This document shows, piece after piece, positions 38,107 to 60,457 of a DNA stretch of 64,000 nucleotides; within the stretch, counting starts at the first letter, position 1, and the number at the start of each line of letters is the position of its first letter. The translations under genes and the position numbers were made by a program. The notes beneath the pieces were generated by a model. It was given only the letters and a program-made list of their open reading frames with translations, searched no databases and was not told where the DNA came from. Location of the stretch: the IMG/VR virus record IMGVR_UViG_3300029060_000343. One strand, given 5' to 3'. Origin of the DNA: a virus.

Positions 38107-38119
38107 AAGAAATATAAAC

Positions 38120-38190: not shown

Positions 38191-38197
38191 AAAAAAC

Positions 38198-38287: not shown

Positions 38288-38289
38288 AG

Positions 38290-38380: not shown

Positions 38381-38437
38381 CATATACACTGAATAGAAAC
38401 AGGTGACTAATCTGCTTCGCACAGCTTAAATGCAAAG

Positions 38438-38511
38438 ACATCGGTGGGATTCGAACCCACGATAAAACCTGTTTTGCAGACAGGCGCCTTAGACCACTCG
38501 ACCACGATGCC
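38438..38511 (-). tRNA. tRNA-Cys(GCA)
   Basis: T-arm GUGGGUUCGAAUCCCAC; anticodon loop CUGCAAA. Confidence 0.7.
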
Positions 38512-38518
38512 ATAATAC

Positions 38519-38592
38519 TACGGACAGCGGGACTCGAACCCGCAAAGTACGATTTAGAAGACCGTTGTTTTATCCAATTAGACTATGCCCGT
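38519..38592 (-). tRNA. tRNA-Arg(UCU)
   Basis: T-arm GCGGGUUCGAGUCCCGC; anticodon loop CUUCUAA. Confidence 0.7.
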
Positions 38593-38598
38593 ATAAAA

Positions 38599-38671
38599 TA
38601 TCCCCAGGCAGATTTGAACTGCCGTTCCCTGCGTGAGAGGCAGATGTCCTTGACCGCTAGACTATGGGGAC
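38599..38671 (-). tRNA. tRNA-Glu(CUC)
   Basis: 5' GUCCCC Glu-like acceptor; T-arm GGCAGUUCAAAUCUGCC; loop CUCUCAC. Confidence 0.65.
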
Positions 38672-38675
38672 TTAA

Positions 38676-38767
38676 CGCTGTGACAGGGATTCGAACCCTG
38701 AAAGCGGGAATCTCACCCGACATGCCGGATTTCAAGGCCGGTGCTGTACCAGTTGAGCCATCACAGC
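38676..38767 (-). tRNA. tRNA-Ser(UGA), class II
   Basis: T-arm CAGGGUUCGAAUCCCUG; loop CUUGAAA; long variable arm. Confidence 0.65.
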
Positions 38768-38772
38768 AAAAG

Positions 38773-38863
38773 CGGAACGGGAGGGACTTGAACCCTCAAA
38801 GCGTGGATTGACACGACATGTCCGGCTTCCAACCGGGTCCTGTACCAATTGAGGCACCGCTCC
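38773..38863 (-). tRNA. tRNA-Ser(GGA), class II
   Basis: T-arm GAGGGUUCAAGUCCCUC; loop UUGGAAG; long variable arm. Confidence 0.6.
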
Positions 38864-38891
38864 ATATCAGGCTCTTTAACAAGAGCCTTTA

Positions 38892-39413
38892 TCATTTTGA
38901 AATTTTATCAGCAATTCCGGATGCAACATAAGACTCCGGCTTAACCTTTGCCTCAAAACCCATTGAAGTGACCCAGCCTATGAGCTCAGGAATCAATTCC
39001 TTCGTCTTACCATGTTCAGAATAACCAGCATCAATATGAATAGAAAACTCTGTGTTCAAAAATACGTCTTCATATTCCGTTGTCTCAAATATTGTAATAA
39101 GCTGTTCTGCTATTTCAAGTGAATCGCCGGTTTCCACACGAAGTTTTGTTCTTACATCTGAAATACGGTCACGTGCGTTAATCTTATAAAAGAAAATACC
39201 GCCGTGTCCTTCACAGATCACAGCAATTACACTTACTTCTTTCGTATAATCAAAATTCTGCGAATCCGTACCGATCGTAATATGAATACCGGTACCATAC
39301 TCTTTCATTCTTTCATAGTAAGCCTTTATATATTTTGGAATTTCCTGTATCATAAGCTCACCGTGTGATGGCGAAATCCAGTTTTCACTGTAATGTTTCT
39401 TACTCATGATCAC
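38892..39413 (-). CDS. hypothetical protein embedded in the tRNA array (possible RNase-H-like/DUF458-type fold)
   Basis: ORF track; TIGTDSQ segment; flanked by tRNAs on both sides. Confidence 0.45.
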   Translation of the reverse strand: MIMSKKHYSENWISPSHGELMIQEIPKYIKAYYERMKEYGTGIHITIGTDSQNFDYTKEVSVIAVICEGHGGIFFYKINARDRISDVRTKLRVETGDSLEIAEQLITIFETTEYEDVFLNTEFSIHIDAGYSEHGKTKELIPELIGWVTSMGFEAKVKPESYVASGIADKISK

Positions 39414-39437
39414 GTTGCTCCTTTCTGATATTTTTTA

Positions 39438-39513
39438 GCAGGCGCGGAGGGATTCGAACCCCCAGACAATCACGGTTTTGGAGACCGTTGCTGTACCAGT
39501 TGAGCCACGCACC
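39438..39513 (-). tRNA. tRNA-Trp(CCA)
   Basis: T-arm GGGGGUUCGAAUCCCUC; loop CUCCAAA. Confidence 0.7.
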
Positions 39514-39755
39514 CATAATAATGAACAATAAAAAACAGCCTCTTTTGATAAACTTTTTATCAGAAGATGCTGCAGAGAATGCCGGTAATTTTGTTATGCG
39601 AAAATTTTTGCATCAACAAATAAAGCAGTACATCTTCTTATCATGTCTACTCTCTGACCACGAACTATTGGATTGTCTGCTACATCTGTTTACGTTATGC
39701 ATAATTATTTACTCCTTCCTGCAATTTTTCTGTATCTGCATAAAAACTGGAAAAA

Positions 39756-39829
39756 TACGCCAAATCGGATTCGAACCGATACTAACAGGGGCTTAAACCC
39801 TGTGCCTCTGCCGATTGGGCTATTGGCGC
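39756..39829 (-). tRNA. tRNA with anticodon UAA (Leu codon UUA), class I length with Leu-type D-arm
   Basis: Loop UUUAAGC (G37); 3-bp D-stem with long D-loop; 5-nt variable region. Confidence 0.55.
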
Positions 39830-39833
39830 ATAA

Positions 39834-39906
39834 TGGGTATGACAGGCCATGATCCTGCAACCTTCGGCTTAAGAGGCCGATACTCTGCCACTTGAGTTAC
39901 ATACCC
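39834..39906 (-). tRNA. tRNA-Lys(CUU), noncanonical T-loop
   Basis: Perfect acceptor GGGUAUG/CAUACCC; loop CUCUUAA; T-loop AUCAUGG. Confidence 0.6.
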
Positions 39907-39928
39907 GTGGATACACATGCGGTATCAG

Positions 39929-40012
39929 TGCACCCGACGAGACTCGAACTCGCATGGAAAGTAATTCCGCCAGATTAAAAGTCTGGTGCCATACCAATTA
40001 GGCGACGGATGC
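39929..40012 (-). tRNA. class-II-shaped tRNA with anticodon UUU (Lys codon AAA)
   Basis: Loop CUUUUAA; extra arm GGAAUUACUUUCC; 3-bp D-stem. Confidence 0.5.
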
Positions 40013-40091
40013 ATACATTATAACTTTGATAATCGCTTGCATAACTGTTTTCGTTTCATGATTATTTCTCCTTTATTATAAAGATTTTCAA

Positions 40092-40163
40092 TCCCAAGGA
40101 CAGGATTTGAACCTGCGTTTGCCGGGTATGAACCGGCCGTACTCGCCGCTATACTACCCTGGA
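40092..40163 (-). tRNA. tRNA-Met(CAU), elongator or Ile2-type
   Basis: Loop UUCAUAC; T-arm GCAGGUUCAAAUCCUGU. Confidence 0.65.
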
Positions 40164-40164
40164 G

Positions 40165-40241
40165 TAGCGGGTCCAGGAGTCGAAGCCTGGTATCGCAAGG
40201 GTTATGAGCCCTGCATGGTAAATCCGTTCCACTCACCCGCA
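40165..40241 (-). tRNA. initiator tRNA-fMet(CAU)
   Basis: GGGCUCAUAACCC anticodon arm with three G-C pairs, identical to the bacterial initiator; 1:72 mismatch. Confidence 0.65.
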
Positions 40242-40243
40242 AA

Positions 40244-40316
40244 TGCTGATAACAGGACTCGAACCTGTAACCCCATGCTTGTAAGGCATATGCTCTCCCA
40301 GTTGAGCTACATCAGC
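40244..40316 (-). tRNA. tRNA-Val(UAC)
   Basis: Canonical cloverleaf; loop CUUACAA; T-arm CAGGUUCGAGUCCUG. Confidence 0.75.
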
Positions 40317-40320
40317 ATAG

Positions 40321-40391
40321 TTGTGGTGGACAGAGTCGGACTGTCGTTAACCGCTCATCAGACGGTCTTTCTACCATTGAAATACACCACA
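40321..40391 (-). tRNA. tRNA-Ile(GAU), noncanonical T-loop
   Basis: Loop CUGAUGA; T-loop UCCGACU. Confidence 0.55.
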
Positions 40392-40404
40392 ATATTTTTT
40401 ATGA

Positions 40405-40478
40405 AGCCTGTGACAAGATTTGAACTTGCAACCCTCTACTTACGAGATAGACGCTCTGCCAATTAGAGCTACACAGGC
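40405..40478 (-). tRNA. tRNA-Thr(CGU)
   Basis: Loop CUCGUAA; T-arm CAAGUUCAAAUCUUG. Confidence 0.7.
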
Positions 40479-40487
40479 ATTTTACAG

Positions 40488-40559
40488 TGCTCCCATGGCG
40501 ACTCGAACGCCAACTACAGAGTTCGTAGCCCTGCCGTCTATCCATTAGCGTATGAGAGC
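40488..40559 (-). tRNA. tRNA-Arg(ACG)
   Basis: Loop CUACGAA; T-arm GGCGUUCGAGUCGCC. Confidence 0.7.
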
Positions 40560-40563
40560 ATAG

Positions 40564-40634
40564 CAGGCGGTAACCGAATCGAACGGGTGTCTCACGGCTC
40601 AGAACCGCACGGTTTACCTCTAACCTAACCGCCT
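40564..40634 (-). tRNA. tRNA-Gln(CUG)
   Basis: Loop UUCUGAG; T-loop UUCGAUU. Confidence 0.6.
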
Positions 40635-40636
40635 AT

Positions 40637-40709
40637 AAGCCGCAGAAGGGACTCGAACCCTTAATCCCCTGATTACAAAGCAGGTGCATTACCATTGTGC
40701 TACAGCGGC
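40637..40709 (-). tRNA. tRNA-Thr(UGU)
   Basis: Loop UUUGUAA; T-arm AGGGUUCGAGUCCCU. Confidence 0.65.
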
Positions 40710-40723
40710 ATATTTAATTTCAG

Positions 40724-40807
40724 GGAGACCAGTGGGGCTCGAACCCACGTAGGAATTGCTTCCGCAGAGCCACAATCTGCTGCCTAACCAACTCGGCCAC
40801 AGCCTCC
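40724..40807 (-). tRNA. tRNA-His(GUG) with G-1:C73 and an unusual extra arm
   Basis: Loop UUGUGGC; 8-bp acceptor including G-1; extra arm GGAAGCAAUUCC. Confidence 0.5.
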
Positions 40808-40811
40808 ATAG

Positions 40812-40883
40812 CTGGAATGGCGGGACTTGAACCCACAACCTACCGGTTAACAGCCGGTCGCTCTACCATTGAGCTACAAACCA
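40812..40883 (-). tRNA. tRNA-Asn(GUU)-like copy with weakened acceptor stem (possible pseudo-tRNA)
   Basis: Body nearly identical to the tRNA-Asn at 41637..41709; two U·U mismatches in the acceptor. Confidence 0.4.
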
Positions 40884-40900
40884 ATACTATATTATCTAAA

Positions 40901-40974
40901 TGGGGCGAGTGAGAATCGAACTCACGACACACGGCTTATAAGGCCGCTGCTCTTGACCCCTGAGCTACCACCCC
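40901..40974 (-). tRNA. tRNA-Ile(UAU)
   Basis: Loop CUUAUAA; T-arm GUGAGUUCGAUUCUCAC. Confidence 0.6.
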
Positions 40975-41060
40975 TTATGAAATAAGGTTCGGTATAGATA
41001 TTCGTCTCATAGTCTTGTTTCTCCTTTATATTTGTTATACTCTTTCTACAGGAAAGAAAA

Positions 41061-41134
41061 TGTACCAGAAGGGATTCGAACCCATAGAAAACCGGATTTG
41101 AGCCGGCCCCGTCTGCCAGTTGCGGCACTGATGC
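41061..41134 (-). tRNA. tRNA with anticodon CAA (Leu codon UUG), class I length with Leu-type D-arm
   Basis: Loop CUCAAAU; D-arm CCGCAACUGGCAGACGG; short variable region. Confidence 0.5.
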
Positions 41135-41140
41135 ATACAG

Positions 41141-41213
41141 TCGGAATGACAGGTCTCGAACCTGCAGCCTCATGATCCCAAATCACGCGCGCTACCAATT
41201 GCGCCACATCCCG
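41141..41213 (-). tRNA. tRNA-Pro(UGG)
   Basis: 5' CGGGAUG; loop UUUGGGA; T-arm GCAGGUUCGAGACCUGU. Confidence 0.7.
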
Positions 41214-41219
41214 ATACAG

Positions 41220-41293
41220 TGCCCATGAGTGGTTTCGAACCACCAACCTCTGCCATCTGAAGACAGTTCGTCTGCCAATTGCGCCACATGGAC
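41220..41293 (-). tRNA. tRNA with anticodon CAG (Leu codon CUG), class I length
   Basis: Loop UUCAGAU; T-arm GGUGGUUCGAAACCACU; 5-nt variable region. Confidence 0.5.
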
Positions 41294-41300
41294 ATCACAG

Positions 41301-41378
41301 TACCTCGAATGGGAGTCGAACCCATAAACAATCACAGAGTCCTTAGCTCTGCCGCTTTGCCAATTTGCGTACCGAGGC
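41301..41378 (-). tRNA. tRNA with anticodon AAG (Leu codon CUU), short variable region
   Basis: Loop CUAAGGA; Leu-type D-arm CGCAAAUUGGCAAAGCG; T-arm UGGGUUCGACUCCCA. Confidence 0.5.
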
Positions 41379-41392
41379 ATATTTATTTTAAG

Positions 41393-41476
41393 TGGGCGAA
41401 GAAGGACTTGAACCTTCAGAAGCCGAAGCCAACTGTTTTACAGACAGTACCGCTGCCAATTACGGGATATTCGCCC
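41393..41476 (-). tRNA. tRNA-Tyr(GUA), class II
   Basis: Loop CUGUAAA; long variable arm; T-arm GAAGGUUCAAGUCCUUC. Confidence 0.7.
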
Positions 41477-41481
41477 AAAAG

Positions 41482-41569
41482 TCGGCAGGGTGAGAGTCGA
41501 ACTCACAATGTTTACCACGAGGGTCACAGTTTTACAGACTGCTTGCTTCAGCCTTTTGCATACCTGCCG
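41482..41569 (-). tRNA. tRNA-Tyr(GUA), second copy with divergent sequence, class II
   Basis: Loop CUGUAAA; perfect acceptor CGGCAGG/CCUGCCG; long variable arm. Confidence 0.65.
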
Positions 41570-41636
41570 TTAATAATATTCAGTTCCCATATAATAATAG
41601 TCTGGCATATCAGTCATCTCCTTTACATTTCTTAAG

Positions 41637-41709
41637 CTCTCACAGCAGGACTTGAACCTGCAACATCCCGGTTAACAGCCGGACGCTCTACCGATTGAGC
41701 TATGCGAGA
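41637..41709 (-). tRNA. tRNA-Asn(GUU)
   Basis: Loop CUGUUAA; T-arm GCAGGUUCAAGUCCUGC. Confidence 0.7.
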
Positions 41710-41713
41710 ATAG

Positions 41714-41786
41714 AGTGCGTGAACGGATTCGAACCGTCCCTTTCTGCTTGGAAGGCAGATGTGCTATCCGCTGACACTACACACAC
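41714..41786 (-). tRNA. tRNA-Gly(UCC)
   Basis: Loop CUUCCAA; T-arm GACGGUUCGAAUCCGUU. Confidence 0.65.
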
Positions 41787-41791
41787 ATAAG

Positions 41792-41867
41792 CGACTCCAA
41801 CGGGATTTGAACCCGTGTTATTCCTGCGTGACAGGCAGGTGCCATAAACCAGCTAGGCGATGGAGCC
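41792..41867 (-). tRNA. tRNA-Asp(GUC)
   Basis: Loop CUGUCAC; T-arm CACGGGUUCAAAUCCCGU. Confidence 0.65.
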
Positions 41868-41871
41868 ATAA

Positions 41872-41943
41872 TGCCTCGTTTCGGTTACGATCCGATCCTC
41901 TGGAGCTTCAATCCAGCGCTTCTACCAAGTTAGCTTACGAGGC
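41872..41943 (-). tRNA. tRNA-Phe(GAA), noncanonical T-loop
   Basis: Perfect acceptor GCCUCGU/ACGAGGC; loop UUGAAGC; T-loop AUCGUAA. Confidence 0.6.
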
Positions 41944-42050
41944 TCGGTAAAGTCAGTATCGTCTTTACCGCCATAAAATCGTTTATCCATATTTTTTCAA
42001 TGTCCTTTCGTATATTGTATAAATCCTGAGTGCCTGGTTCAGAATTTAAG

Positions 42051-42123
42051 AGCAGATGACGGAACTCGAATCCGCATTTCTGACTTGGCAAGCCAGTGTA
42101 TTAGCCAGCTATACGACATCTGC
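42051..42123 (-). tRNA. tRNA-Gly(GCC)
   Basis: Perfect acceptor GCAGAUG/CAUCUGC; loop UUGCCAA; T-arm GCGGAUUCGAGUUCCGU. Confidence 0.7.
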
Positions 42124-42190
42124 ATGTGGGACAAACGGAGTGCCTGGTTCCATAAGTCCCTGTTTTGTTGTATTACGGATATTTCCGTAG

Positions 42191-42263
42191 CGACCGATGC
42201 GGGATTCGAACCCACGTCTCGGGAGTGAAATTCCCGTGACCTCGTCCTCTAGTCGAATCGGCC
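42191..42263 (-). tRNA. tRNA-Glu(UUC)
   Basis: Perfect acceptor GGCCGAU/AUCGGUC; loop AUUUCAC; T-arm GUGGGUUCGAAUCCCGC. Confidence 0.65.
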
Positions 42264-42270
42264 AAATCAA

Positions 42271-42347
42271 TGGAGCATATGAGAATCGAACCCATCTGTT
42301 TTTCCTGTTTGCAAAACAGGCGACCACCCCTTGCAGTCCCATACCCC
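42271..42347 (-). tRNA. tRNA-Ala(UGC) with G3:U70
   Basis: 5' GGGGUAU with G3·U70 wobble; loop UUUGCAA; T-arm AUGGGUUCGAUUCUCAU. Confidence 0.6.
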
Positions 42348-42416
42348 ATATAATTAAAAAGACCACTAAACTAAGACAATTTCTTAATCCAGTGGTCATG
42401 ATTTCATATTTCCAAT

Positions 42417-42677
42417 CTATGCGCGGTTCCTGTTCCACCGGGTGCCTGTTCCGATATCTGCTGACCGCTTGAAACGGCTATGAAAAGAACCACTGAATGA
42501 ATTATGTAATTGTCTGAGATACGCTATAATCGCTGAAAAAAGACTGCATTCCGGCTTACTATCGACAATAAGATCCCATCCATAATGATAATTAGAGCGC
42601 ACCAAACCAAGCCCTGTTTCCAGTGCGAATGACATCTGTGTGAACTGAGGTTTGTTTTTCATAATCATTGCTATCAT
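42417..42677 (-). CDS. hypothetical small protein between the sigma-A promoter and the tRNA array
   Basis: AAGGAAAAGAAAGACC-ATG RBS; may be a leader ORF of the tRNA operon. Confidence 0.3.
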   Translation of the reverse strand: MIAMIMKNKPQFTQMSFALETGLGLVRSNYHYGWDLIVDSKPECSLFSAIIAYLRQLHNSFSGSFHSRFKRSADIGTGTRWNRNRA

Positions 42678-42786: not shown

Positions 42787-42815
42787 ACTATAACACCTAC
42801 CGGAAGTATTGTCAA
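42787..42815 (-). promoter_or_regulatory. canonical sigma-A-type promoter (TTGACA-N17-TATAGT) upstream of the tRNA array
   Basis: Reverse complement of 42810-42815 is TTGACA; 17-nt spacer; reverse complement of 42787-42792 is TATAGT. Confidence 0.55.
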
Positions 42816-42869
42816 CATATTTTTATTTCTTTTTCACTATTATTATGATAGATTTTTTATAAAAACAAA

Positions 42870-42894
42870 ACCTCCCGAGAAATTCCCGGGAGGT
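42870..42894 (-). terminator. intrinsic terminator
   Basis: ACCTCCCGAGAAATTCCCGGGAGGT hairpin. Confidence 0.55.
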
Positions 42895-42953
42895 CTCAAG
42901 TTAAAATAAAGGACCGCCGCTTCCGTGCATAACAATCACTCCTTTCTTCACGT

Positions 42954-43424
42954 CTATACAAGACTGAAATTTTCTCTATCTTTCAGCAGTCTTTCACGCA
43001 GATCAGCAAGCGTATAGATCTTATTTTCGTTCAAAAAAGCATAACCGTACCGATGTCCATACATAATAACTTCGATAACGGGACAAGAATCAAGCGCAAT
43101 TCCTTTCTGCGTACCCATGAACTGAAGAAAACAACCAATGTTCGCAAAAGGTCTTTCTCCTCCAATTTCACTGAGCTGAATGCGAATTTTTTCAACTTCT
43201 TTGATATAATTTTCAATCTCGTAGTCATCAATTATCTCGCCCTGCCATAAACCGAGTTCGTGCATTATATCCTTTGTTGTCTCGGACAGAGAATAAGTAA
43301 AATCACCGTCTACGATATAATTTATCTTCTTTTCCAGGTCCAGTTTAGACCATAATTCGCGGTAGTCTAGAAACGAAGATCTACCAATCAGTTCCTTCAT
43401 TTTTTCGTTAATTTTATTTGTCAT
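42954..43424 (-). CDS. hypothetical protein (156 aa)
   Basis: ORF track; CGGAGGTAAAAATTC-ATG RBS; motif at 43455-43471. Confidence 0.5.
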   Translation of the reverse strand: MTNKINEKMKELIGRSSFLDYRELWSKLDLEKKINYIVDGDFTYSLSETTKDIMHELGLWQGEIIDDYEIENYIKEVEKIRIQLSEIGGERPFANIGCFLQFMGTQKGIALDSCPVIEVIMYGHRYGYAFLNENKIYTLADLRERLLKDRENFSLV

Positions 43425-43454
43425 GAATTTTTACCTCCGATTTTCTTTGATGAT

Positions 43455-43471
43455 ATTAATATGAAAGAAAA
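43455..43471 (-). promoter_or_regulatory. conserved intergenic motif copy (ATTAATATGAAAGAAAA)
   Basis: 33 nt upstream of the 42954..43424 start. Confidence 0.5.
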
Positions 43472-43629
43472 AGAGTTGGAAAAACCGATTTTGATTTTCT
43501 TGTATTAATCAAATTCCCTTATTTTATTTGTTTTACGACAATAACATGAAAAATATTCGACAAATTATACTTTTCATTTTTGCTAAATATTGATATGATG
43601 GAAATGCATCAAAGAAAAAGAGGGATAAT

Positions 43630-44598
43630 ATGGAAAAGAAAAATGAACCGAAATTATATCATATCGAAGAAATGGAAGAATATCTCAATTCAATATTACC
43701 GGATTCTTCGAACTCTTTTAAATACCTTTATCTTAAAAAGCAGATTATGGCACATTTTTCTTTAGCAAGAAATGGCTATACTAATCGCATTTCCTCTTAT
43801 ACTGAAGTCAAAAGAGAAGCTTTAGATAAGCTTTGTTGTAAAATAGCTGAAGAATATGGAACAACTGAAAAAACATGGGCTCAACTGGCGAAGGAAAATG
43901 ACATTAATATCTCGACAGTTCAACATTATATTAAAAAATACGACCAAGAGCATCCAGGCTATTTTTCTCAAAAACCTAATAGAATAAATGAACATGAAAT
44001 TATTGAAATGTATTTTGAGAAAAAATATACAGCCAATGAAATAGCGGAAAAATTAGGGTGTTCCGCTTCTACCGTGTGGCGCGCAATCCGCAGTTATAGA
44101 AATATACATAAGGAGTTGGAGACGGACTGTAGTTTAACAAGAAATTTTTTAAACAAAGAAGATATAGAGATTGCCTGTGCATATCTCAATACGAACAGCA
44201 CTTATAAAGAAGTGGCTGCAAAGTATTCATGTAGTATTTCGACTGTCCAGTATTGCATTAAAAAATACAAGGCCGCTACGGCGAAAATGGAAGAAATTTC
44301 TCCCACTGTAGATAATAGTAATTTTGTGCGCTTGTATTTTGTAAAAAATGTTTCCATCGAGCAATTGACGGCCTATGGAAAATATTCCAGGGAAGATATA
44401 GAAAATGGTATAAAAGAATATTTGAGCGAATTATGTAAAAAATATACGGCTGATGAATTGATTGCGGAGCAGATTATTGAGGATTACATTAATGGTGAAA
44501 AAGCACACTCTTTAGCTAAAAAATACCATAAAGCAACAACAACCGTAACGGAGATCATAGAATTATATAAAAATTCCACACAAAAAGAACCGGGATAA
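43630..44598 (+). CDS. multi-HTH DNA-binding protein (4-5 tandem IS30/sigma-r4-like helix-turn-helix units)
   Basis: Repeats ISTVQHYIKKY, CSASTVWRAIRSY, CSISTVQYCIKKYK and TTTVTEIIELYK, each preceded by a helix; AAGAGGGATAAT-ATG RBS. Confidence 0.55.
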   Translation: MEKKNEPKLYHIEEMEEYLNSILPDSSNSFKYLYLKKQIMAHFSLARNGYTNRISSYTEVKREALDKLCCKIAEEYGTTEKTWAQLAKENDINISTVQHYIKKYDQEHPGYFSQKPNRINEHEIIEMYFEKKYTANEIAEKLGCSASTVWRAIRSYRNIHKELETDCSLTRNFLNKEDIEIACAYLNTNSTYKEVAAKYSCSISTVQYCIKKYKAATAKMEEISPTVDNSNFVRLYFVKNVSIEQLTAYGKYSREDIENGIKEYLSELCKKYTADELIAEQIIEDYINGEKAHSLAKKYHKATTTVTEIIELYKNSTQKEPG

Positions 44599-44681
44599 AA
44601 TCCGGTTCTTTTCATCTTAAGGTACTGCGCAATCTTGTCAATAAAGATAAATGATTCTCGCGTGTAAATCCCAAATCGACT

Positions 44682-46109
44682 TTAATCGCTCAGAGAGGTA
44701 TCACCAGGTATCCAATTCTCTTCTGCTTTCTTCCTGAATTTCGGTGCTACCGTCTCTTTATAAAACGCGGATTCTGAAGCCATAGCCATATCAATGATCC
44801 AGAATTCATCTCCGTTTTGCATCACGTCGATCGACCACTGACCGCTTAAATTAACGTCCGGCAGCAGTTCTTCGATTTCTTTCACAACGAGGCTTTTGTT
44901 TGATACATATTTCCGATACAATTCTTTTTCATGTATAGAATAAATAACATAATCATGCCGGTCATGGATATTAGAATTACGTGCAAAACGTTTTTTCATT
45001 GTTTCTGCGTCCCAGTAGGCATGAATGCCAAGTACCATGTCTATATCAAAGTCAACGAATATGCGATATTCTGTATGAAGCGGCAGCCCTTTGTAAATAG
45101 TGGGATTATTCTCCTTATCCTGAATAAATTCGCGGACCACCCATTCATTTGTTGTAGAAACACCGTAAATAGGATGCGGAATTGTCGTGGGAGCAGCCAT
45201 CTGCAACGCCTGCCAGTGGATAAATAACAGATATTCTCCCAATTCCCGTACTTCTTTTGCACCAAATACATGTGCATTACGAAAATCAAATTTGGAAGAA
45301 TAGGTTCCGGTTTTGATAAAATAGTCCTTATCTTCGCTCAATTCAAATGCTTTTCTGCAGTATGCATCCACGATATCCAGTGTCGTTCTGTTGAATGACA
45401 TATAATCCAGCCTCGTGAGCTGAAGTAATGTAAGCGGCACTTTAATGATTGTTGTTGCCGGGATTTTAAAAAATCCTCTGTCTAGGACTGGTCGGATCAT
45501 TTGTGGCAGCCAATAACCCATGGAATTTCTGTTACATCCGATCATATCATAGAGTCCGGAATCCATATCCAAAATATCCAATCCCTGCCGGAACATTCCA
45601 TAAAACGAAGCTGCTTTCTGTTCGTCTCCCGCTGCTTTTGCTTCCATATATTTCTGAAGCATAAGGTATACTATCTCACTACTTGACTCTTTCATATCCT
45701 TTGCCACAAACGTTCCTGTAAACTGAGGTCTTACATCTTTTGAAATTTTGAGCAATTCTTCCTTGAGTACTTTAACCTCGGTTTCAGGAAGGCTTTTTGT
45801 ATCAAGCGTCCCGTTTACTCTCTTCCCGTCAAATTTCCACACAACGGTCTGCGAGAGAAGTTCATCGACGATGCGGTCAATGATATCCTGGCTGCATCCA
45901 TTTGATAGAATACCTTCTTTTTCTTCGGCGGCCTGTTTTGCATTAATATCAAAAAGATTGTTGCTGTCGTTTTCGGAGGAATCAGTCTTTCGGTACATTT
46001 CCTCGAATTTATCAAGAAATTTTGGATCTGCTTTTAATATTTTTACAGCTTCGCCAAGTGATAAAGACTTTACATTTTTGCGTTTTGGTAGAAATATCTT
46101 CTCTAAAAA
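44682..46109 (-). CDS. hypothetical protein, possible C-terminal ATP-grasp-like domain (GTG start)
   Basis: C-terminal region (EYRIFVDFD...GQWSIDVMQNGDEFWIIDM) resembles the ATP-grasp strand-loop pattern; GTG start after a GGAGGAAG RBS. Confidence 0.4.
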   Translation of the reverse strand, partial: FLEKIFLPKRKNVKSLSLGEAVKILKADPKFLDKFEEMYRKTDSSENDSNNLFDINAKQAAEEKEGILSNGCSQDIIDRIVDELLSQTVVWKFDGKRVNGTLDTKSLPETEVKVLKEELLKISKDVRPQFTGTFVAKDMKESSSEIVYLMLQKYMEAKAAGDEQKAASFYGMFRQGLDILDMDSGLYDMIGCNRNSMGYWLPQMIRPVLDRGFFKIPATTIIKVPLTLLQLTRLDYMSFNRTTLDIVDAYCRKAFELSEDKDYFIKTGTYSSKFDFRNAHVFGAKEVRELGEYLLFIHWQALQMAAPTTIPHPIYGVSTTNEWVVREFIQDKENNPTIYKGLPLHTEYRIFVDFDIDMVLGIHAYWDAETMKKRFARNSNIHDRHDYVIYSIHEKELYRKYVSNKSLVVKEIEELLPDVNLSGQWSIDVMQNGDEFWIIDMAMASESAFYKETVAPKFRKKAEENWIPGDTSLSD

Positions 46110-46170
46110 ATTCACTTTTTCTTCCTCCTGTTTTCTGATTTCTATTAATATGTCAGAATTGGGATCTAGA

Positions 46171-46194
46171 AAAATCTCCCCGAAGGGAGATTTT
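46171..46194 (-). terminator. intrinsic terminator after the 687-aa gene
   Basis: AAAATCTCCCCGAAGGGAGATTTT. Confidence 0.6.
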
Positions 46195-46195
46195 C

Positions 46196-48259
46196 TTAAT
46201 TGTGTGTTGATAAACATGACCTCGTTATTTGCAATAAAAACTTGCATTTTTCGCATTTCTTACACAAGTCAAAACCTCTGCTCTGTCCTTTGCAAGTACC
46301 GACAGCATTTTCTACCGTCGCTTTTTCCGTTGTCGCATTTATGAAACGACTTCTCTCGTAACATCTCGGTAATCCGCTTTTCCAGAAAGCTTCTCTTGCG
46401 ACACCGGCCTCGTCCTGGCAGCCGTAGGTTTCGTCTACGCTCAAAACCACCGCAAAATTGAATTCTTTCTCATTGTAGTGATCTTTGATCGCCCAGTCCA
46501 TTGGATCGTAGTTATCGAGCAGGTGATTTCCCTGATGATAGAGTCCGTAATTATAATGCTGGAATTCTTCCGGAAGCTCCGGAACCTTTACATTACATAA
46601 TTTTGCAAGTTCCTCCGCCGTTCTCGCCTGGAACGTCAACACCACGGAAGGCTTTTTGCCGATAAAATAGCTCTTATAATCAGCTTTTGTCCAGTTATTT
46701 TCTCCTTTATGAAAAACCTTTGTACAACAGTACCAGAGCCCGTCGTTATAAAATGCATCGAAAGTTGTTTTGTCCATGGGAATTTCACCACGGAAACCTG
46801 AGAGGATCGTTTTTCTCAGATTTTTTTCGAACATCTCAACAACGGCATTTCTTACGAAAGCGTAGTTGCGTTCATAATCCTTTTCTTCCATATCTGCGAT
46901 CGCTTTTGCAATATTGTATCTGGCGAGCCACCTCTGATCGTATTTGAGTTCTTCTTCCGTCCGCAGATCATTCAGATTTATGGACTCGTATCTCGGAGTG
47001 TTTTTTGTTCCCCAGTCATTTGTCTTGCTGTTTTCTGGGGACAACATAAATTCGTTATCTCTTCCGTCTACGAGATCCATTATTTTAGTATTTACCTTAT
47101 CGATGTATCTTTCAATAAGATAATCGTATAAATGCTGCGAAGCATGACCGTCGTATTCCAGTTCATTTACGTCATCGAGAGTCGGTGCCACAAGAGGAAT
47201 CAACGGGATATTGCCGGCAGCAACGATCTCTTTTCTTCCGTTGTCTTCCAGACCTGGACAGATAATATTTGCCTTGCAGTAGGATAATTCCGGACAGGAT
47301 ACTTTTCCGTCATAGAATTTTTCTTTGATCAGCTGGAACATGTAAACAGCCCAGAAGGCTTCGCACTGATCCATGGATTTCAAAGTGCCGATCTTTACTC
47401 TGACGGCATCATTTTCTATGATGTTGGATAACTCCGCATCCGTTTCACTTACACCGTATCTGCTGCCGCCCCACAGATCACTTATATCAATTCCTGAAAG
47501 CGACGAATAAGGGAACCAGTTGCCTTCGATACGCCTGCTCATATCTCTTCCGGGACATCTTGAAAAGTTTCTCTGGATCGGATATTTGTAGACTGGCCGG
47601 TCAGATAAAATATAAAGGTTTTCGCCGTTTCTGATCAGAAATGCAAAGTAACTTTCATCGATATTTTTCTCATTTCTGATATAACACAGGGATACACCGG
47701 TAATCGCGCCTTTTGCTGCATAACGGATCACGTCACTGATACTTCTATACATATAAACTTCGCTAGAAGCTTTAAAAGAGCCTTCGTCGAATCTGCCTTT
47801 TGCAATCTGATCAAGTTTTAATCCCTTATTGATGCAGTAGTTTGCAGACGTAACAATATCCATGATGTTTTCGGCGCTCAGTTTATCGGATTCCAGATTG
47901 TAGAAGTCAAGTGCAGATTTTGCATTTCTGATGATCTCCTCTTCTGCTCCCGTTTCCAGGATTGCCTGATACAATTTTCTGCAATCTTCAGCCAATTCCT
48001 GCATCTCTGTATTTAAAATAATATCCATTAAGGAAACGGTCTTTTCTTTGATAAATTTCTTGAAATAGATACCAAGATAAGCTTCTGCAAATAATCCAGT
48101 CTCATCAATCTGAAGCACCTCTTTAATCTTATCGTCCATAACTTTGATGTCGTAATCAGATAATTTCCCGGACAGATTGATTGAAAAAGAAGTTTTTTCT
48201 TCACTGGGATCCAATCCTGTGATCTTCACCCATAAATTCAGTTTTTCTTTTAATGTCAT
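46196..48259 (-). CDS. large hypothetical protein (687 aa) with Cys-rich C-terminus
   Basis: Longest intact ORF in the window; terminator hairpin at 46171-46194. Confidence 0.6.
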   Translation of the reverse strand: MTLKEKLNLWVKITGLDPSEEKTSFSINLSGKLSDYDIKVMDDKIKEVLQIDETGLFAEAYLGIYFKKFIKEKTVSLMDIILNTEMQELAEDCRKLYQAILETGAEEEIIRNAKSALDFYNLESDKLSAENIMDIVTSANYCINKGLKLDQIAKGRFDEGSFKASSEVYMYRSISDVIRYAAKGAITGVSLCYIRNEKNIDESYFAFLIRNGENLYILSDRPVYKYPIQRNFSRCPGRDMSRRIEGNWFPYSSLSGIDISDLWGGSRYGVSETDAELSNIIENDAVRVKIGTLKSMDQCEAFWAVYMFQLIKEKFYDGKVSCPELSYCKANIICPGLEDNGRKEIVAAGNIPLIPLVAPTLDDVNELEYDGHASQHLYDYLIERYIDKVNTKIMDLVDGRDNEFMLSPENSKTNDWGTKNTPRYESINLNDLRTEEELKYDQRWLARYNIAKAIADMEEKDYERNYAFVRNAVVEMFEKNLRKTILSGFRGEIPMDKTTFDAFYNDGLWYCCTKVFHKGENNWTKADYKSYFIGKKPSVVLTFQARTAEELAKLCNVKVPELPEEFQHYNYGLYHQGNHLLDNYDPMDWAIKDHYNEKEFNFAVVLSVDETYGCQDEAGVAREAFWKSGLPRCYERSRFINATTEKATVENAVGTCKGQSRGFDLCKKCEKCKFLLQITRSCLSTHN

Positions 48260-48269
48260 ATTTTTCTCC

Positions 48270-48938
48270 TTATAAAATACCTGCGAATCTCAATACCTTG
48301 TTGCAATCAAGCTCATAAATATGAGAGTCCCAGTCGTCTCCCGGTTGTGTTTTTTGCACCGCAATCGGACATTTACAGACGGCATCGAAATTCTTTTTCA
48401 GCCAGTCATAAACATATTGATTCTGACCATTCCAGATATACTCGATATGAGCCGGAATACCAAAAATGGTTTTCATGTCGCGTATGGCTGATGCAAGAAC
48501 AACTGTACCAATTCCACGGTTTTTATAGCCATCTTCTGTAAACCATGCAGGAATTACCCAAGTATTTGCATCATTGCTCTTCTTGTGCATCTCGCAGTGG
48601 CAGATAATATCATCTCCTGCCTTTGCAATGTATTCGATCAATCCATTCTCTTCGTCTAAAAATCCGCAGCAGATAGTGATCCGGCGAAGATTATTTCTTT
48701 CCTCAAATTTCTTCAAGGATTTTTCATTTTCTTCAAACACTGTTTTATTGTGTTCGCTGTGATCAAAATAATATGTGGATTTTGTCATTGTGTATCTCGC
48801 CCTTCGCGCTTCCCATGAATCTAATACATCTGTTGTTGTATTGTAATGTTTTATTTCACAGGCTTGAATTTCATTGCGATCAAGAGATTTTTTTCCACAT
48901 ACTTCACATTCATATTGTGAAATCATTCTTCGTATCAT
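48270..48938 (-). CDS. hypothetical protein; N-terminal zinc ribbon plus possible GNAT-like C-terminus
   Basis: CEVCGKK...C N-terminus; GIGTVVLASAIRD resembles GNAT motif A. Confidence 0.4.
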   Translation of the reverse strand: MIRRMISQYECEVCGKKSLDRNEIQACEIKHYNTTTDVLDSWEARRARYTMTKSTYYFDHSEHNKTVFEENEKSLKKFEERNNLRRITICCGFLDEENGLIEYIAKAGDDIICHCEMHKKSNDANTWVIPAWFTEDGYKNRGIGTVVLASAIRDMKTIFGIPAHIEYIWNGQNQYVYDWLKKNFDAVCKCPIAVQKTQPGDDWDSHIYELDCNKVLRFAGIL

Positions 48939-48969
48939 CTTCTTCTCCCTCTTTCTTTAGTTTGACAGT

Positions 48970-48987
48970 ATTAATATGACAGATAAG
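48970..48987 (-). promoter_or_regulatory. conserved intergenic motif copy (ATTAATATGACAGATAAG)
   Basis: Upstream of 48270..48938; preceded by terminator 49000-49019. Confidence 0.5.
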
Positions 48988-48999
48988 AAGGTACGAAAA

Positions 49000-49019
49000 A
49001 TCCTCCCCTAAGGGAGGAT
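49000..49019 (-). terminator. intrinsic terminator
   Basis: ATCCTCCCCTAAGGGAGGAT hairpin. Confidence 0.5.
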
Positions 49020-49023
49020 CCTG

Positions 49024-49719
49024 TTAATTTTTTAATTCCTCGTAATGTTCCGTTAATTCCTCACTCAGCGCTTTTCCACTCTCACCGAATAACATTTTTA
49101 ACTGGAACGGAAGTCCGATCTCTTTGTCGGAAGCATTTGTTATAGCTTTTTTAATTTCATCCATGCGTTTGCTGTATTTGCAACCGGCCTTTTCTTCAGC
49201 AATCTTCACCAGTTTTTCCAGGAGATCGTCAGTGGGCGTGTTTTCCGGTGGACTCATCATCGGTGTCTCCTCTTCTTTTGCTGCAGCCGGTTCGGGATCT
49301 TCATTTTTCAACTCTTTTACACCTTTCGGTTCAGCTGTTTTTCTCGGAGCTCTCGGCTTCGATACTTTCTTATCGGAATTTTTTGCGGCAGCAGCCATGG
49401 ATAAAAGCTCGATCTCCTGTTCTTTCGCGAAATCCGCCATATCCCTGGGCACGGACGAAATGGTACATACACGGGACTCTTTCCGCTCCTTTAACATCCC
49501 GAGAACAAACAACAATGTATCTCTTTTCTCTGGAAGCGCCGTAGAAAGCTCCAGTTTATCATCCGGAATAGGCAGCTGGCGAAGCTTGTTATATTCACTA
49601 ATCCGCAGTTCAGTTCCAAGGACTGTGAACTTATCGAACATAGACGGGATCTTTTTGTTTTCTTTGATCAGATCTGATAATTTCTGGATTTCATCGCTCC
49701 AGATAAGTAATGTTGACAT
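49024..49719 (-). CDS. hypothetical protein with Lys/Pro/Glu-rich central region
   Basis: ORF track; terminator at 49000-49019. Confidence 0.5.
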   Translation of the reverse strand: MSTLLIWSDEIQKLSDLIKENKKIPSMFDKFTVLGTELRISEYNKLRQLPIPDDKLELSTALPEKRDTLLFVLGMLKERKESRVCTISSVPRDMADFAKEQEIELLSMAAAAKNSDKKVSKPRAPRKTAEPKGVKELKNEDPEPAAAKEEETPMMSPPENTPTDDLLEKLVKIAEEKAGCKYSKRMDEIKKAITNASDKEIGLPFQLKMLFGESGKALSEELTEHYEELKN

Positions 49720-49919
49720 ACGTTACACCTCCTTCTTTTAATATTATTATGACAGAATTTTTATAGAGTGGAAATTTCTGCACAAAAAGAACGAATAATA
49801 CATTCGCTCTTCATATATCAGGTTATGGATGAAAATTTAAAGGCCTCGTTAAACCTCTGTCGCCTATGCCAATTTTTCTTTCCAAGTTACAAATCACCCT
49901 GATATACATATGAAATCGC

Positions 49920-49947
49920 TTGTATATATATGAAACGGTAGTATAAT
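49920..49947 (+). promoter_or_regulatory. sigma-A-type promoter TTGTAT-N16-TATAAT for 49969..50274
   Basis: Read directly from sequence. Confidence 0.5.
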
Positions 49948-49968
49948 TGATATATAAGGAGGTGTATT

Positions 49969-50274
49969 ATGTACATTAATGGAGACGAACTAAAAGTAAT
50001 CTTATTGAAAATCTACGAAACATTAAATATACAGACAGATTGTAATTTTACTGATATTCTTTATGAACGGCTTAAAAATTATGAAAATGATGAGAGTGTA
50101 GCTCAATTTTTTCAGGACAAGAATCATTGTGATATCATCCCTTCTCTGGCAAGTGAAAAGGAAATTACTTCTTTGAAATCTGAATTGATAACCTTATTGC
50201 AGGATATTAAAACTCACCAGACAGAAGAATTAGAAAAAGGACCTATACAATTTAATGAAAATAATGAACGCTAA
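49969..50274 (+). CDS. hypothetical protein (101 aa)
   Basis: Canonical promoter TTGTAT-N16-TATAAT plus AAGGAGG RBS; terminator at 50274-50298. Confidence 0.55.
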   Translation: MYINGDELKVILLKIYETLNIQTDCNFTDILYERLKNYENDESVAQFFQDKNHCDIIPSLASEKEITSLKSELITLLQDIKTHQTEELEKGPIQFNENNER

Positions 50275-50298
50275 AAAAGAGAGCAAAAGCTCTCTTTT
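50274..50298. terminator. bidirectional terminator
   Basis: AAAAAGAGAGCAAAAGCTCTCTTTT. Confidence 0.6.
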
Positions 50299-50427
50299 AT
50301 TTTACTATTTCCACAGTGATTTTTACGCGATCCCCATTTACAAAATCGTAAGAGTTCGTGTTACTAATGCTTTCCGCTATCTGACCATTTCCTTCCGTCT
50401 ACTCTTTTCTGCATAATAATTTTTATA

Positions 50428-50456
50428 TTGACAAATAGAACATATGTTTGTATAGT
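50428..50456 (+). promoter_or_regulatory. sigma-A-type promoter TTGACA-N17-TATAGT for 50477..50755
   Basis: Read directly from sequence. Confidence 0.55.
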
Positions 50457-50476: not shown

Positions 50477-50755
50477 ATGATAATTTCAGATTCTATCTTC
50501 GACACCAAACATATTCGCTGCGTTCCGGTCATTGCTGTATTTTCGACTTCTGGTGCTATCAAGCCATTGTATGTGACAATTAACTGGATAAAATTTAAAA
50601 TAGAAAACTACGCCGTCCAGAACAATGCATTCGGAGATAACTGGATCTATTTCTTGTGCGATATTATGGACGGCAATAAAAAGAAACAAATCAAACTGCA
50701 ATACAATCTGTCAGAGCATGCCTGGTTCGTGGACGCCAAATATCTCAGCTCATAA
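50477..50755 (+). CDS. hypothetical protein (92 aa)
   Basis: Canonical TTGACA-N17-TATAGT promoter plus CGGAGGGATTTTATA-ATG RBS. Confidence 0.55.
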   Translation: MIISDSIFDTKHIRCVPVIAVFSTSGAIKPLYVTINWIKFKIENYAVQNNAFGDNWIYFLCDIMDGNKKKQIKLQYNLSEHAWFVDAKYLSS

Positions 50756-50757: not shown

Positions 50758-51009
50758 CTATGCCGCACATATTCCGACATACCCACAACCATGTATAACT
50801 TTATATCTGTCATCTTTCTCAAAACAGAAATCCAGACTTTCTGCGGGACATTCTTCCGGATCAATCCATCCGGTCCGGTTTGCTCGCATGATCGTCCCAT
50901 CTTCGCATCGCCAGATCACATCTCCTTTTTCGAAAGTTGTATCCGTGCTGCTTTTCGTCACCTTATAAACAACATTTTTCTCCATTACCGTTTCTCCTCT
51001 GCGGTCCAC
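50758..51009 (-). CDS. hypothetical protein (83 aa)
   Basis: ORF track. Confidence 0.45.
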   Translation of the reverse strand: MDRRGETVMEKNVVYKVTKSSTDTTFEKGDVIWRCEDGTIMRANRTGWIDPEECPAESLDFCFEKDDRYKVIHGCGYVGICAA

Positions 51010-51206
51010 GGCACAACGATACCTAATAATTTCAAATAAGCGTACACTTCTTTGTATCCACCTACCCCGAACATGCGGATCTTACTTAAGTTTCCGTAGT
51101 CGATAATATCGCCCACGGTTTTGATTCCGGCACGACGAAGAACGCTATAAGTTCGGTGGGAAAACTTCTCCGATCCAAGTAGCATATACAAAGGCGTGGC
51201 CACCAA
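50985..51206 (-). CDS. RNA polymerase alpha C-terminal-domain-like (HhH) small protein; TTG start or frameshifted continuation of 51145..51417
   Basis: FSHRTYSVLRRAGIKTVGDIIDYGNLSKIRMFGVGGYKEVYAYL matches the alpha-CTD helix-hairpin-helix pattern (SVRSxNCLKxAGIxTVGDL...NFGKKSLxEI). Confidence 0.45.
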   Translation of the reverse strand: MVATPLYMLLGSEKFSHRTYSVLRRAGIKTVGDIIDYGNLSKIRMFGVGGYKEVYAYLKLLGIVVPWTAEEKR

Positions 51207-51738: not shown

Positions 51739-52037
51739 GGATCATTGGCGCTTACATGAAGCAGGTCTTCTGCGATCTTATGCAGGCATTCAGTATCGAC
51801 TTTTGCTACTACGGCGGCGACACCATTGATTCTAGGTCTGCCGCGGTATACGCACCCACCGGGCCAGCCGTCTTCGAATTCACTTTGGGGAACCGTTCTA
51901 TATTCAATTTTATTTTCTTCCATAAAAGGAATCAGTTTATTTAAAATTACTCCCGGAACAACGGTAACTTCTTCTTTTTCAGAATATACAATTTGTGGAT
52001 TATACATTTCTGCCTCCTTATTCATTTGATGAATCAA
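51711..52037 (-). CDS. hypothetical protein (108 aa), paralog of 51433..51738
   Basis: Tandem duplicate. Confidence 0.5.
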   Translation of the reverse strand: MIHQMNKEAEMYNPQIVYSEKEEVTVVPGVILNKLIPFMEENKIEYRTVPQSEFEDGWPGGCVYRGRPRINGVAAVVAKVDTECLHKIAEDLLHVSANDPCFGGRKVM

Positions 52038-52063
52038 TTATAATACAAATATTAACGACAGTC

Positions 52064-52080
52064 AAAATTCTGCACAGAAA
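52064..52080 (-). promoter_or_regulatory. TTTCTGCACAGAAA inverted-repeat box (TTCTG-CA-CAGAA), one of ~8-10 intergenic copies
   Basis: Other copies at 2633-2650, 3252-3270 (variant), 14092-14110, 49771-49790, 51391-51410, 60490-60505 and 31108-31127 (variant). Confidence 0.4.
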
Positions 52081-53959: not shown

Positions 53960-54039
53960 GATTATTAATTCCTCCTCTTTTCTTTGATTTCTCTTAATAT
54001 GAAAGAAAACCGCGGATAAAATCCACGGTTTCTCATAAA

Positions 54040-60442: not shown

Positions 60443-60457
60443 AAATACTCCTTATAT

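Follow-up and report, generated by a model that had tools for sequence, protein, structure and literature searches.

Several classes of phage promoters dispense with the -35 element, among them the T4 late promoters (TATAAATA) that depend on gp55, the extended -10 promoters of the Thermus phage P23-45 with gp39/gp76, and the promoters recognized with the aid of phiEco32 gp36. In large phages of Firmicutes, the closest described case is that of the Kayvirus vB_SauM-515A1, in which RNA-seq delineated 58 early promoters of the sigma-70 type and 12 late promoters that have no -35 element and consist of a long -10 box, TGTTATATTA, extended by TWN on its upstream side and by TT on its downstream side; both promoter types are found together in five units, and the late class has been assigned to a phage sigma factor (PMC7698491). 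According to a review, every jumbo phage that encodes its own RNA polymerase has a conserved AT-rich motif of ~10 nucleotides (nt) near -10 before the early operons (PMC7598289), and in AR9 the early consensus, AAATATATATTAT-(6N)-G, is served by the virion RNA polymerase (PMC5312081). In SPbeta, the element SPBRE, repeated in ~10 promoters of early genes, serves as the operator for the master repressor MrpR (PMC10516654). Here, two classes of predicted promoters are described in a 64,000-nt stretch of viral DNA (IMG/VR record IMGVR_UViG_3300029060_000343; hereafter, the window, meaning the whole stretch analyzed) and compared with these systems: host-type promoters that resemble those of bacterial sigma-A, and a -35-less motif.

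The window is part of the long accessory-gene arm of an uncultured large gut phage, the host of which is probably a Firmicute, and nearly all of its genes lie on the minus strand. Two discrete promoter types, both sigma-70-family-like in build, appear to start its transcription units. The initial annotation had set canonical promoters for plus-strand genes and tRNAs apart from a conserved motif for the remaining genes, and had read this division as a temporal programme; the first of these statements is confirmed in part, and the second finds partial support.

The motif class has the consensus TTCTnTCATAWTAA(T), obtained by k-mer counting and with a position weight matrix (PWM), and carries ~24 bits of information. 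With at most one mismatch allowed, TCTKTCATAWTAA matches the window 35 times, compared with 1.3 expected, and 32 of these matches are on the minus strand; at a PWM score of >=12 bits, the minus strand has 36 matches and the plus strand 4. Some 35 copies, all of them lying on the gene strand, are predicted to head transcription units, which amounts to roughly one gene in three and not to almost every gene outside the canonical set, as had been claimed. The motif usually lies directly after an intrinsic terminator (hairpin and T-run), the 54 nt upstream of it fold more stably than random windows (p = 5e-7), and the median distance to the start codon is 42.5 nt; the units can therefore be described as terminator-promoter-gene cassettes. 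The predicted start site is ~7 nt downstream of CATAWT, often the A of ATCA. There is no -35 element at the motif sites, where the best match reaches 2.2/6 positions compared with 2.5/6 at random positions.

The conservation of the motif extends well beyond the window. It continues into both flanks of the contig and, in the 30-odd loci of relatives in which a marker protein is down to 56% identical, still occurs on the gene strand at a density of ~5 copies per 10 kb; it is missing from two unrelated contexts in which the same marker gene is found. The C at -12 is invariant in 34 window sites and 70 sites of relatives, with TCT at -17 to -15 and AA at -6/-5 also fixed, and the core T-C-T-n-T-C-A-T-A-W-T-A is invariant in the 70 distinct sites of divergent relatives, where -14 is G, T or A. 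Orthologous sites exchange G and T at -14 and A and T at -8; a division of the motif into subclasses by these positions was rejected because the sites switch freely. The motif also occurs at junctions of swapped gene cassettes.

The host-type class, defined by T at -12 together with a TTGnnn -35 element and/or a TG-extended -10, comprises at least eight sites in the window, each located 20–110 nt before an open reading frame (ORF). The exact arrangement TTGACA-N17-TATAGT occurs twice, compared with 0.03 expected, and none of 100 shuffles contains two. Generic sigma-70-like matches in the window are at the chance level (51 found, 55 expected), so that only the best host-type sites carry weight; TGNTATAAT is not enriched in the window either (9 found, 4.9 expected), so that the extended -10 at 36912-36920 draws its support solely from its position. 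Given these counts, the case for the host-type promoters is one of position and conservation. When scored over the 12 positions of the two hexamers, P42815, P50428 and P52065 (promoters are named as in Table 1) each reach 11/12 with a 17-nt spacer, and P49920 reaches 9/12; P3270, P43571, P14094 and P36920 depend on the TG-extended -10. In relatives whose protein with multiple helix-turn-helix (HTH) units is 79–92% identical to that of the window, P49920, P50428, P43571 and P42815 all have their hexamers intact, with varying spacer positions and with the upstream flank deleted or replaced. For example, P49920 retains both hexamers in locus L010 (loci of relatives are cited by L numbers) with three changes in the spacer, P50428 is conserved although L010 has lost its upstream flank by deletion and L002 has a different sequence there, and the orthologue of P52065 in L012 keeps the dyad box described below, the -35 and the -10 across a completely diverged 17-nt spacer. 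By their conservation, the host-type sites appear to be under selection as promoters.

All four promoter sites of the initial annotation are present. Among the three that were called textbook sigma-A promoters, 42787-42815 and 50428-50456 are exact TTGACA-N17-TATAGT, whereas 49920-49947 (TTGTAT-N16-TATAAT) is not a textbook case because, despite a perfect -10, its -35 matches only 3/6 and its spacer is 16 nt long; the fourth, the extended -10 at 36912-36920, lies 43 nt before an ATG and has the minus-strand sequence TGGTATAAT. The assignment of canonical promoters to plus-strand genes and tRNAs holds insofar as all plus-strand genes have host-type promoters, yet promoters of this type also occur on the minus strand, at 52065, 14094 and 36920, and the credible plus-strand genes number four rather than two, with the addition of 3343-3645 and 43630-44598, both preceded by TG-extended -10 promoters. 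Host-type promoters head four opposite-strand genes, including the multi-HTH regulator gene, in addition to the tRNA leader, and also serve the 49.9-52.1 kb island that holds a gene resembling the alpha-subunit C-terminal domain (alpha-CTD) of RNA polymerase. Strand and class are associated: 4/4 plus-strand genes are of the host type, and among the minus-strand heads, ~35 have the motif and 2 have the host type only (Fisher p = 1.5e-4).

The two classes can be aligned through a shared upstream element. The palindrome TTCTGTGCAGAA, with at most one mismatch, is found 8 times in the window, compared with 0.42 expected, and this dyad box precedes seven window promoters that belong to both classes. 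Across the phage family, a -10-like hexamer follows the box by exactly 24-25 nt in 39 of 50 distinct contexts; 22 of these hexamers are CATAAT or CATATT, and 17 are TATAAT, TACAAT or TATAGT. The equal spacing before TATAAT and CATAAT implies that CATAWT occupies the -10 position. The center of the box falls at about -42.5/-43.5, and the box is presumably the site of a dimeric regulator. Of these boxed promoters, 15/17 with T(-12) but 0/22 with C(-12) have a TTG -35 (p = 5e-9), and TCT at -17 to -15 is present in 7/17 and 19/22, respectively; the 39 promoters include orthologous copies from related phages, so that the Fisher tests overstate their independence. Because the TTG -35 is tied to T(-12) and never found with C(-12), the two classes are discrete, and on this point the annotated division into two promoter classes is borne out.

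In its overall organization, the locus is close to the Kayvirus. The motif, written as TTC-TnTCATAWTA-AT, is compatible with TGTTATATTA and its extensions at 13/15 positions, an alignment that argues for a dedicated specificity factor. Both are large phages, that of the window probably also infecting a Firmicute, with two promoter consensuses, the second of which combines a long -10 box with the lack of a -35, and both show a start site (predicted here) a few nt downstream, some units with both promoter types, and dense promoter-terminator punctuation. They differ in that an invariant C here corresponds to the Kayvirus T at -12, with G at -14 being optional; the motif heads accessory genes, whereas the Kayvirus box heads morphogenesis genes; and here, the two classes share an upstream dyad box, and no phage sigma factor was found in the sequence examined for sigma and polymerase genes, which comprised the window and the related loci and is under half of the genome. 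The resemblance to the T4, P23-45 and phiEco32 classes is that a single element in the -10 region would suffice and that a phage protein would switch transcription away from -35-dependent promoters; the sequences are different, and no homologue of their factors was detected in the window.

The explanation favored here is that the host-type promoters would be read by the unmodified host sigma-A holoenzyme, and the motif promoters by the host core polymerase together with a factor that the phage specifies, be it a sigma-like protein or sigma-A in a modified form. The outcome would be a Kayvirus-like programme of two phases, in which units with both promoter types, the tRNA leader being one, would be expressed during each of the two. 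A sigma-A promoter without a -35 should need the best possible -10, so that the invariance of the C at -12 speaks for a different specificity of recognition. That the motif class depends on a dedicated factor is given about an even chance.

Several observations pull the other way. The window and the related sequence that was examined around it revealed no sigma-70 region-2 protein and no RNA polymerase subunit, and the only sigma factor seen in relatives, a member of the FliA/WhiG family, had to be rejected as the reader of the motif because it is missing from the equivalent region of this phage and is truncated in 6/7 copies. The same box at the same distance in both classes could mean that one holoenzyme reads both, and the tests on the boxed promoters carry the reservation given above. 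The order of events, in which host-type promoters would act early and the motif later, is a plausible reading of the sequence. The motif heads tRNAs and accessory genes, including those for a methylase, an AcrVA2-like protein and an anti-repressor, and genes of the accessory and anti-defence types are usually early; no structural gene was recognized under the motif in the window, whereas the Kayvirus long -10 box heads structural genes. Finally, the sole hint of the host in a scan of 185,579 species-representative genomes is a 2-kb contig from a Lachnospiraceae metagenome-assembled genome.

Among the alternatives, the one that survives best, albeit as an unlikely one, is that host sigma-A reads both classes, the motif being a -35-independent -10 variant combined with the site of a phage repressor or activator, as in the case of SPBRE and MrpR; the opposite-strand genes would then be constitutive regulator or maintenance genes. 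CATAWT does retain A(-11) and T(-7), ~38% of the copies have TG at -15/-14, and one dyad box at one spacing serves both -10 types. SPbeta, a large phage of Firmicutes, supplies a precedent (PMC10516654), with a short element repeated in the promoters of many units, early or accessory ones, and a protein encoded in the window (phrog_12834) shares 38% identity with one from SPbeta-like Staphylococcus phages. The window also contains an anti-repressor-like Bro-N gene, and the multi-HTH gene has a weak motif in reverse orientation over its own -10 (43598). Against this stands the C(-12), which is invariant where, without a -35 and mostly without TG, the best -10 would be expected, along with the fixed TCT at -17 to -15 and AA at -6/-5. 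Furthermore, unlike SPBRE, with its ~10 copies, the motif is present in at least 35 copies per 64 kb, is not a dyad, and sits at the -10 itself. There is also no sign of lysogeny: neither an integrase nor any other lysogeny gene was seen in the sequence examined, and no prophage copy was detected in the 185,579 species-representative genomes.

The weak motif copy mentioned above (14.7 bits, minus strand, 43590-43606) overlaps the -10 of the plus-strand promoter of the multi-HTH gene because TCATATCA and TGATATGA are near-palindromic; it could be an autoregulatory site or a chance match.

Slightly less probable still is the possibility that the motif represents the early promoters of a virion-delivered multisubunit phage RNA polymerase of the phiKZ or AR9 type, the accessory arm being the earliest region and the few host-type promoters being read by the host polymerase independently or later. 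A relative, ~90% identical, sits on a 253,625-bp contig and so has a genome of >200 kb, as do jumbo phages, and some genes have two promoter types in both cases. As in the early promoters of AR9 and the phiKZ group, an AT-rich element near -10 (PMC7598289) with no -35 precedes dozens of short operons of small accessory genes, an arrangement typical of an early region, and the core ATATTA is common to the motif and the AR9 consensus AAATATATATTAT (PMC5312081). However, neither a beta/beta'-like gene nor any other phage RNA polymerase gene was found in the sequence examined, which covers less than half of the genome. The motif also occurs side by side with conserved canonical sigma-A promoters, which would be unexpected in a phage independent of the host polymerase, and the dyad box is equidistant from the two kinds of promoters, suggesting a common geometry of the sigma-70 type. 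It is very improbable that the motif is not a promoter at all but an RNA processing or stability signal, or the boundary of a terminator-linked recombination cassette: it does nearly always follow a hairpin with a T-run and occurs at junctions of swapped cassettes, but it stands at a fixed distance from both the start codon and the dyad box, TATAAT and the motif are interchangeable at the same position, the motif turns with the gene when a cassette is inverted (the TnpB-like gene), and the units downstream of terminators would otherwise have no promoter.

If, as favored here, a phage-specified factor reads the motif, candidates can be named in the sequence examined. The only DNA-binding regulator recognized in the window is the 322-amino acid (aa) multi-HTH protein, whose AlphaFold2 model is of low confidence (pLDDT 64.7) and has no significant Foldseek match. 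In relatives, the unit at 52065 encodes a Zn-ribbon protein and a 181-aa protein resembling the alpha-CTD (L003:8586-9131; Pfam, 29.4 bits; alpha-CTD chains in the PDB, E = 2e-4). In the window, a ~620-bp deletion reduced the alpha-CTD-like gene to a remnant and removed most of the Zn-ribbon gene. Host-type promoters driving such reprogramming proteins would fit an early cascade.

The FliA/WhiG-family sigma factor is encoded in seven relatives (TIGR02479, 230 bits) and is intact in one of them (L146:910-1695, 261 aa); the six truncated copies (217 aa; L149:6698-7351 and five others) have lost region 4 by a frameshift. The sigma-28 consensus is unrelated to the motif. Together with the chemotaxis receptor gene 60727-62412, this sigma factor suggests motility-related cargo genes. 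Two other readers of the motif were considered and rejected: a phage polymerase of the YonO type, given that YonO of SPbeta uses a single late promoter and not dozens, and the sporulation factors sigma-G/F, the -10 of which is similar to CATnnTA, given that there is no matching -35 at the motif sites.

The leader of the tRNA unit brings the two classes together. It was annotated as served by a host-type promoter, and TTGACA-17-TATAGT is indeed in place, but it is preceded by a motif promoter. In order, the leader consists of a terminator, the motif, 33 nt, TTGACA-17-TATAGT, a hairpin with a U-run, an 86-aa ORF, another hairpin, likewise with a U-run, and the first tRNA. Relatives share this entire layout, including the tandem promoters, and the motif is TCTGTCATAATAA in L010 and L012. 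No motif and no strong host-type promoter were found inside the tRNA array; with both types in the leader, the array would therefore be fed by both classes, provided that the hairpins are read through. The first of these hairpins is 60 nt long (-31.2 kcal/mol, z = -4.7) and conserved; it is possibly a terminator, attenuator or processing site and could yield a short RNA of ~70 nt or, ahead of the tRNA unit, serve for attenuation or for cleavage by RNase III. In an Rfam search of the window, only the tRNAs were matched, and the leader hairpin was not. The gaps in the array contain micro-ORFs with good Shine-Dalgarno sites (e.g. 40013-40091, 40975-41059 and 41570-41635). The four genes for tRNA-Leu measure only 74-79 nt and therefore lack a long variable arm, and a tRNA-Ile with the anticodon TAT is also present.

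Table 1. Predicted promoters, tRNA-unit elements and candidate factor genes in the window
Position	Strand	Feature	Remark
2196-2208	-	Motif promoter	
2313-2325	-	Motif promoter, one mismatch	
2602-2646	-	Dyad box 2635-2646, motif promoter 2602-2614	
3241-3253	-	Motif promoter, one mismatch	
3256-3298	+	P3270: dyad box 3256-3267, TTGCTC-17-TATAGT with TG	For 100-aa gene 3343-3645
4310-4322	-	Motif promoter	17.0 bits
6700-6712	-	Motif promoter	Bro-N anti-repressor gene
7869-7881	-	Motif promoter	
9388-9400	-	Motif promoter	
11438-11450	-	Motif promoter	46 nt upstream of IS605-type TnpB gene
11743-11755	-	Motif promoter, one mismatch	
12524-12536	-	Motif promoter, one mismatch	
13447-13459	-	Motif promoter	
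13958-13970	-	Motif promoter, one mismatch	
14066-14107	-	P14094: dyad box 14096-14107, TTTGCA-17-TGtTATAAT	Upstream of motif 13958-13970
16904-16916	-	Motif promoter	Radical-SAM gene cluster
25124-25136	-	Motif promoter	
26411-26423	-	Motif promoter	DNA methyltransferase gene
28174-28186	-	Motif promoter	
29080-29092	-	Motif promoter	15.8 bits
31078-31122	-	Dyad box 31111-31122 (one mismatch), motif promoter 31078-31090	
33786-33798	-	Motif promoter	
35918-35930	-	Motif promoter	
36558-36570	-	Motif promoter	
36912-36920	-	P36920: extended -10 TGGTATAAT	43 nt before ATG 36868 of 86-aa Cys-rich gene 36608-36868
37950-37962	-	Motif promoter	CATATT here; CATAAT at orthologous site in L010, L012
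37968-37990	-	Terminator-like hairpin closing tRNA unit	Next motif promoter directly after
38015-42348	-	35 tRNA genes, all 20 amino acids	RNaseH-like ORF 38892-39407 inside
42361-42397	-	Second leader hairpin with U-run	12 nt before first tRNA
42417-42677	-	86-aa ORF	Between promoters and tRNA array; gene call in L001
42708-42774	-	Long leader hairpin, then AUUUUUAU	Directly after predicted start of TTGACA/TATAGT promoter
42787-42815	-	P42815: TTGACA-17-TATAGT, TG at -15/-14	Leader before tRNA array; identical in L010, L011, L012
42840-42852	-	Motif-class promoter TCTATCATAATAA	33 nt upstream of TTGACA, tandem
43456-43468	-	Motif promoter	Divergent from multi-HTH gene
43571-43599	+	P43571: TTTTCA-17-TATGAT with TG extension	For multi-HTH gene 43630-44598
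43630-44598	+	322-aa protein	Repeated HTH units resembling sigma-70 region 4
46145-46157	-	Motif promoter	After terminator of 687-aa gene
48971-48983	-	Motif promoter	L010 orthologue: T for G at -14
49744-49787	-	Dyad box 49776-49787 (one mismatch), motif promoter 49744-49756	231-aa gene
49920-49947	+	P49920: TTGTAT-16-TATAAT	For 101-aa gene 49969-50274; terminator-like hairpin 50275-50298
50428-50456	+	P50428: TTGACA-17-TATAGT	For 92-aa gene 50477-50755
50985-51203	-	72-aa alpha-CTD-like remnant	
52037-52079	-	P52065: dyad box 52068-52079, TTGACT-17-TATAAT	Heads unit of 98-aa, 92-aa, alpha-CTD-like remnant and 75-aa genes
53994-54006	-	Motif promoter	
55883-55895	-	Motif promoter	Top score, 26.4 bits
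56646-56658	-	Motif promoter	
58249-58261	-	Motif promoter	DHH phosphoesterase gene
58558-58570	-	Motif promoter	18.3 bits
60460-60503	-	Dyad box 60492-60503, motif promoter 60460-60472	TnpB-like 488-aa gene
62936-62948	-	Motif promoter	

The window is identical to a part of the 102,595-bp human-gut metagenome contig ERZ918708 k127_138811, such that position x of the window is position x + 21,676 of that record. Its gene content is phage-like and accessory, with genes for the Bro-N anti-repressor, an AcrVA2-like protein, a DNA methyltransferase, radical-SAM enzymes, a DprA-like protein, a DHH phosphoesterase, macro domains, a flotillin, a methyl-accepting chemotaxis protein, and two TnpB genes. 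Both TnpB-type genes (58976-60503 and 10267-11450) are located under the phage's own motif promoter; in relatives, the 488-aa TnpB-like gene is found at varied places and in both orientations and therefore behaves as a mobile cassette that uses a phage promoter.

The phage family is common in human gut metagenomes; the collection lists one window protein in 526 of its blocks. Just past the right end of the window, relatives encode an ATPase (L006) with 48% identity to Enterococcus Herelleviridae proteins. A megablast comparison of 20 kb of the window with the INPHARED phages produced no match; in IMG/VR, no relatives of the 687-aa protein and no copy of a 25-nt promoter were found, and a scan with an 18-nt degenerate motif returned single chance matches only. 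The MT835757 fragment, which encodes a protein 61% identical to a window protein, comes from a different phage without the motif and was discarded as a relative.

Two independent assemblies, k127_138811 (102.6 kb) and ULYR01077957.1 (253.6 kb), have the same orientation, with coordinates agreeing within ~160 bp at 85 kb; both therefore begin at one point ~21.7 kb to the left of the window, which may be a genome end or a repeat boundary. A T/A-rich stretch of the window with repeated tttttcaaaa-like units (20640-20890), upstream of an SSB-like gene (19810-20637), contains no motif promoter and might be an origin or a region of bent DNA. At 6950-9340, neighboring genes for 290-aa and 468-aa proteins consist of tandem repeats of the type DKDLDILVHD / EFxxxQMxxIRxGLE, which in relatives have a DNA period of 72 nt (L144:2328-2615). 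Relatives also carry the type I-C Cascade genes Cas5d, Csd1/Cas8c and Cas7 (L165:3616-4332, L144:4186-6057 and L166:6014-6907), adjoined by a CRISPR-like array of ~19 repeats, GCGCTCCCTATRYGGGAGCGTGAATTGWAAT, with a period of 65-67 nt (L144:7164-8491); no Cas3 was seen in the fetched stretch around these genes.

Two promoter classes with a temporal programme are standard in large phages, and in kind the finding is not surprising. Its import is that the regulatory code of this phage family is now readable from sequence, with a 14-nt box that marks ~35 transcription units per 64 kb. The box marks cassette boundaries and fixes start codons, as in the case of the phrog_12834 gene, for which the motif at 46145-46157 sets the start at 46115. 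The discrete pairing of C(-12) with the lack of a -35 and of T(-12) with a TTG -35, together with the shared dyad operator, provides a handle for finding the specificity factor. A bolder proposition, which is doubtful on the present evidence, is that this gut phage family runs nearly its whole accessory genome from a C(-12) long -10 box that a specificity factor would read, with host-type promoters launching the proteins that reprogram the polymerase. If this is true, the reprogramming set would consist of the HTH repeat protein resembling sigma region 4, the alpha-CTD mimic and the binder of the dyad box, and a Kayvirus-like switch would serve a wholesale takeover and not the late genes alone.

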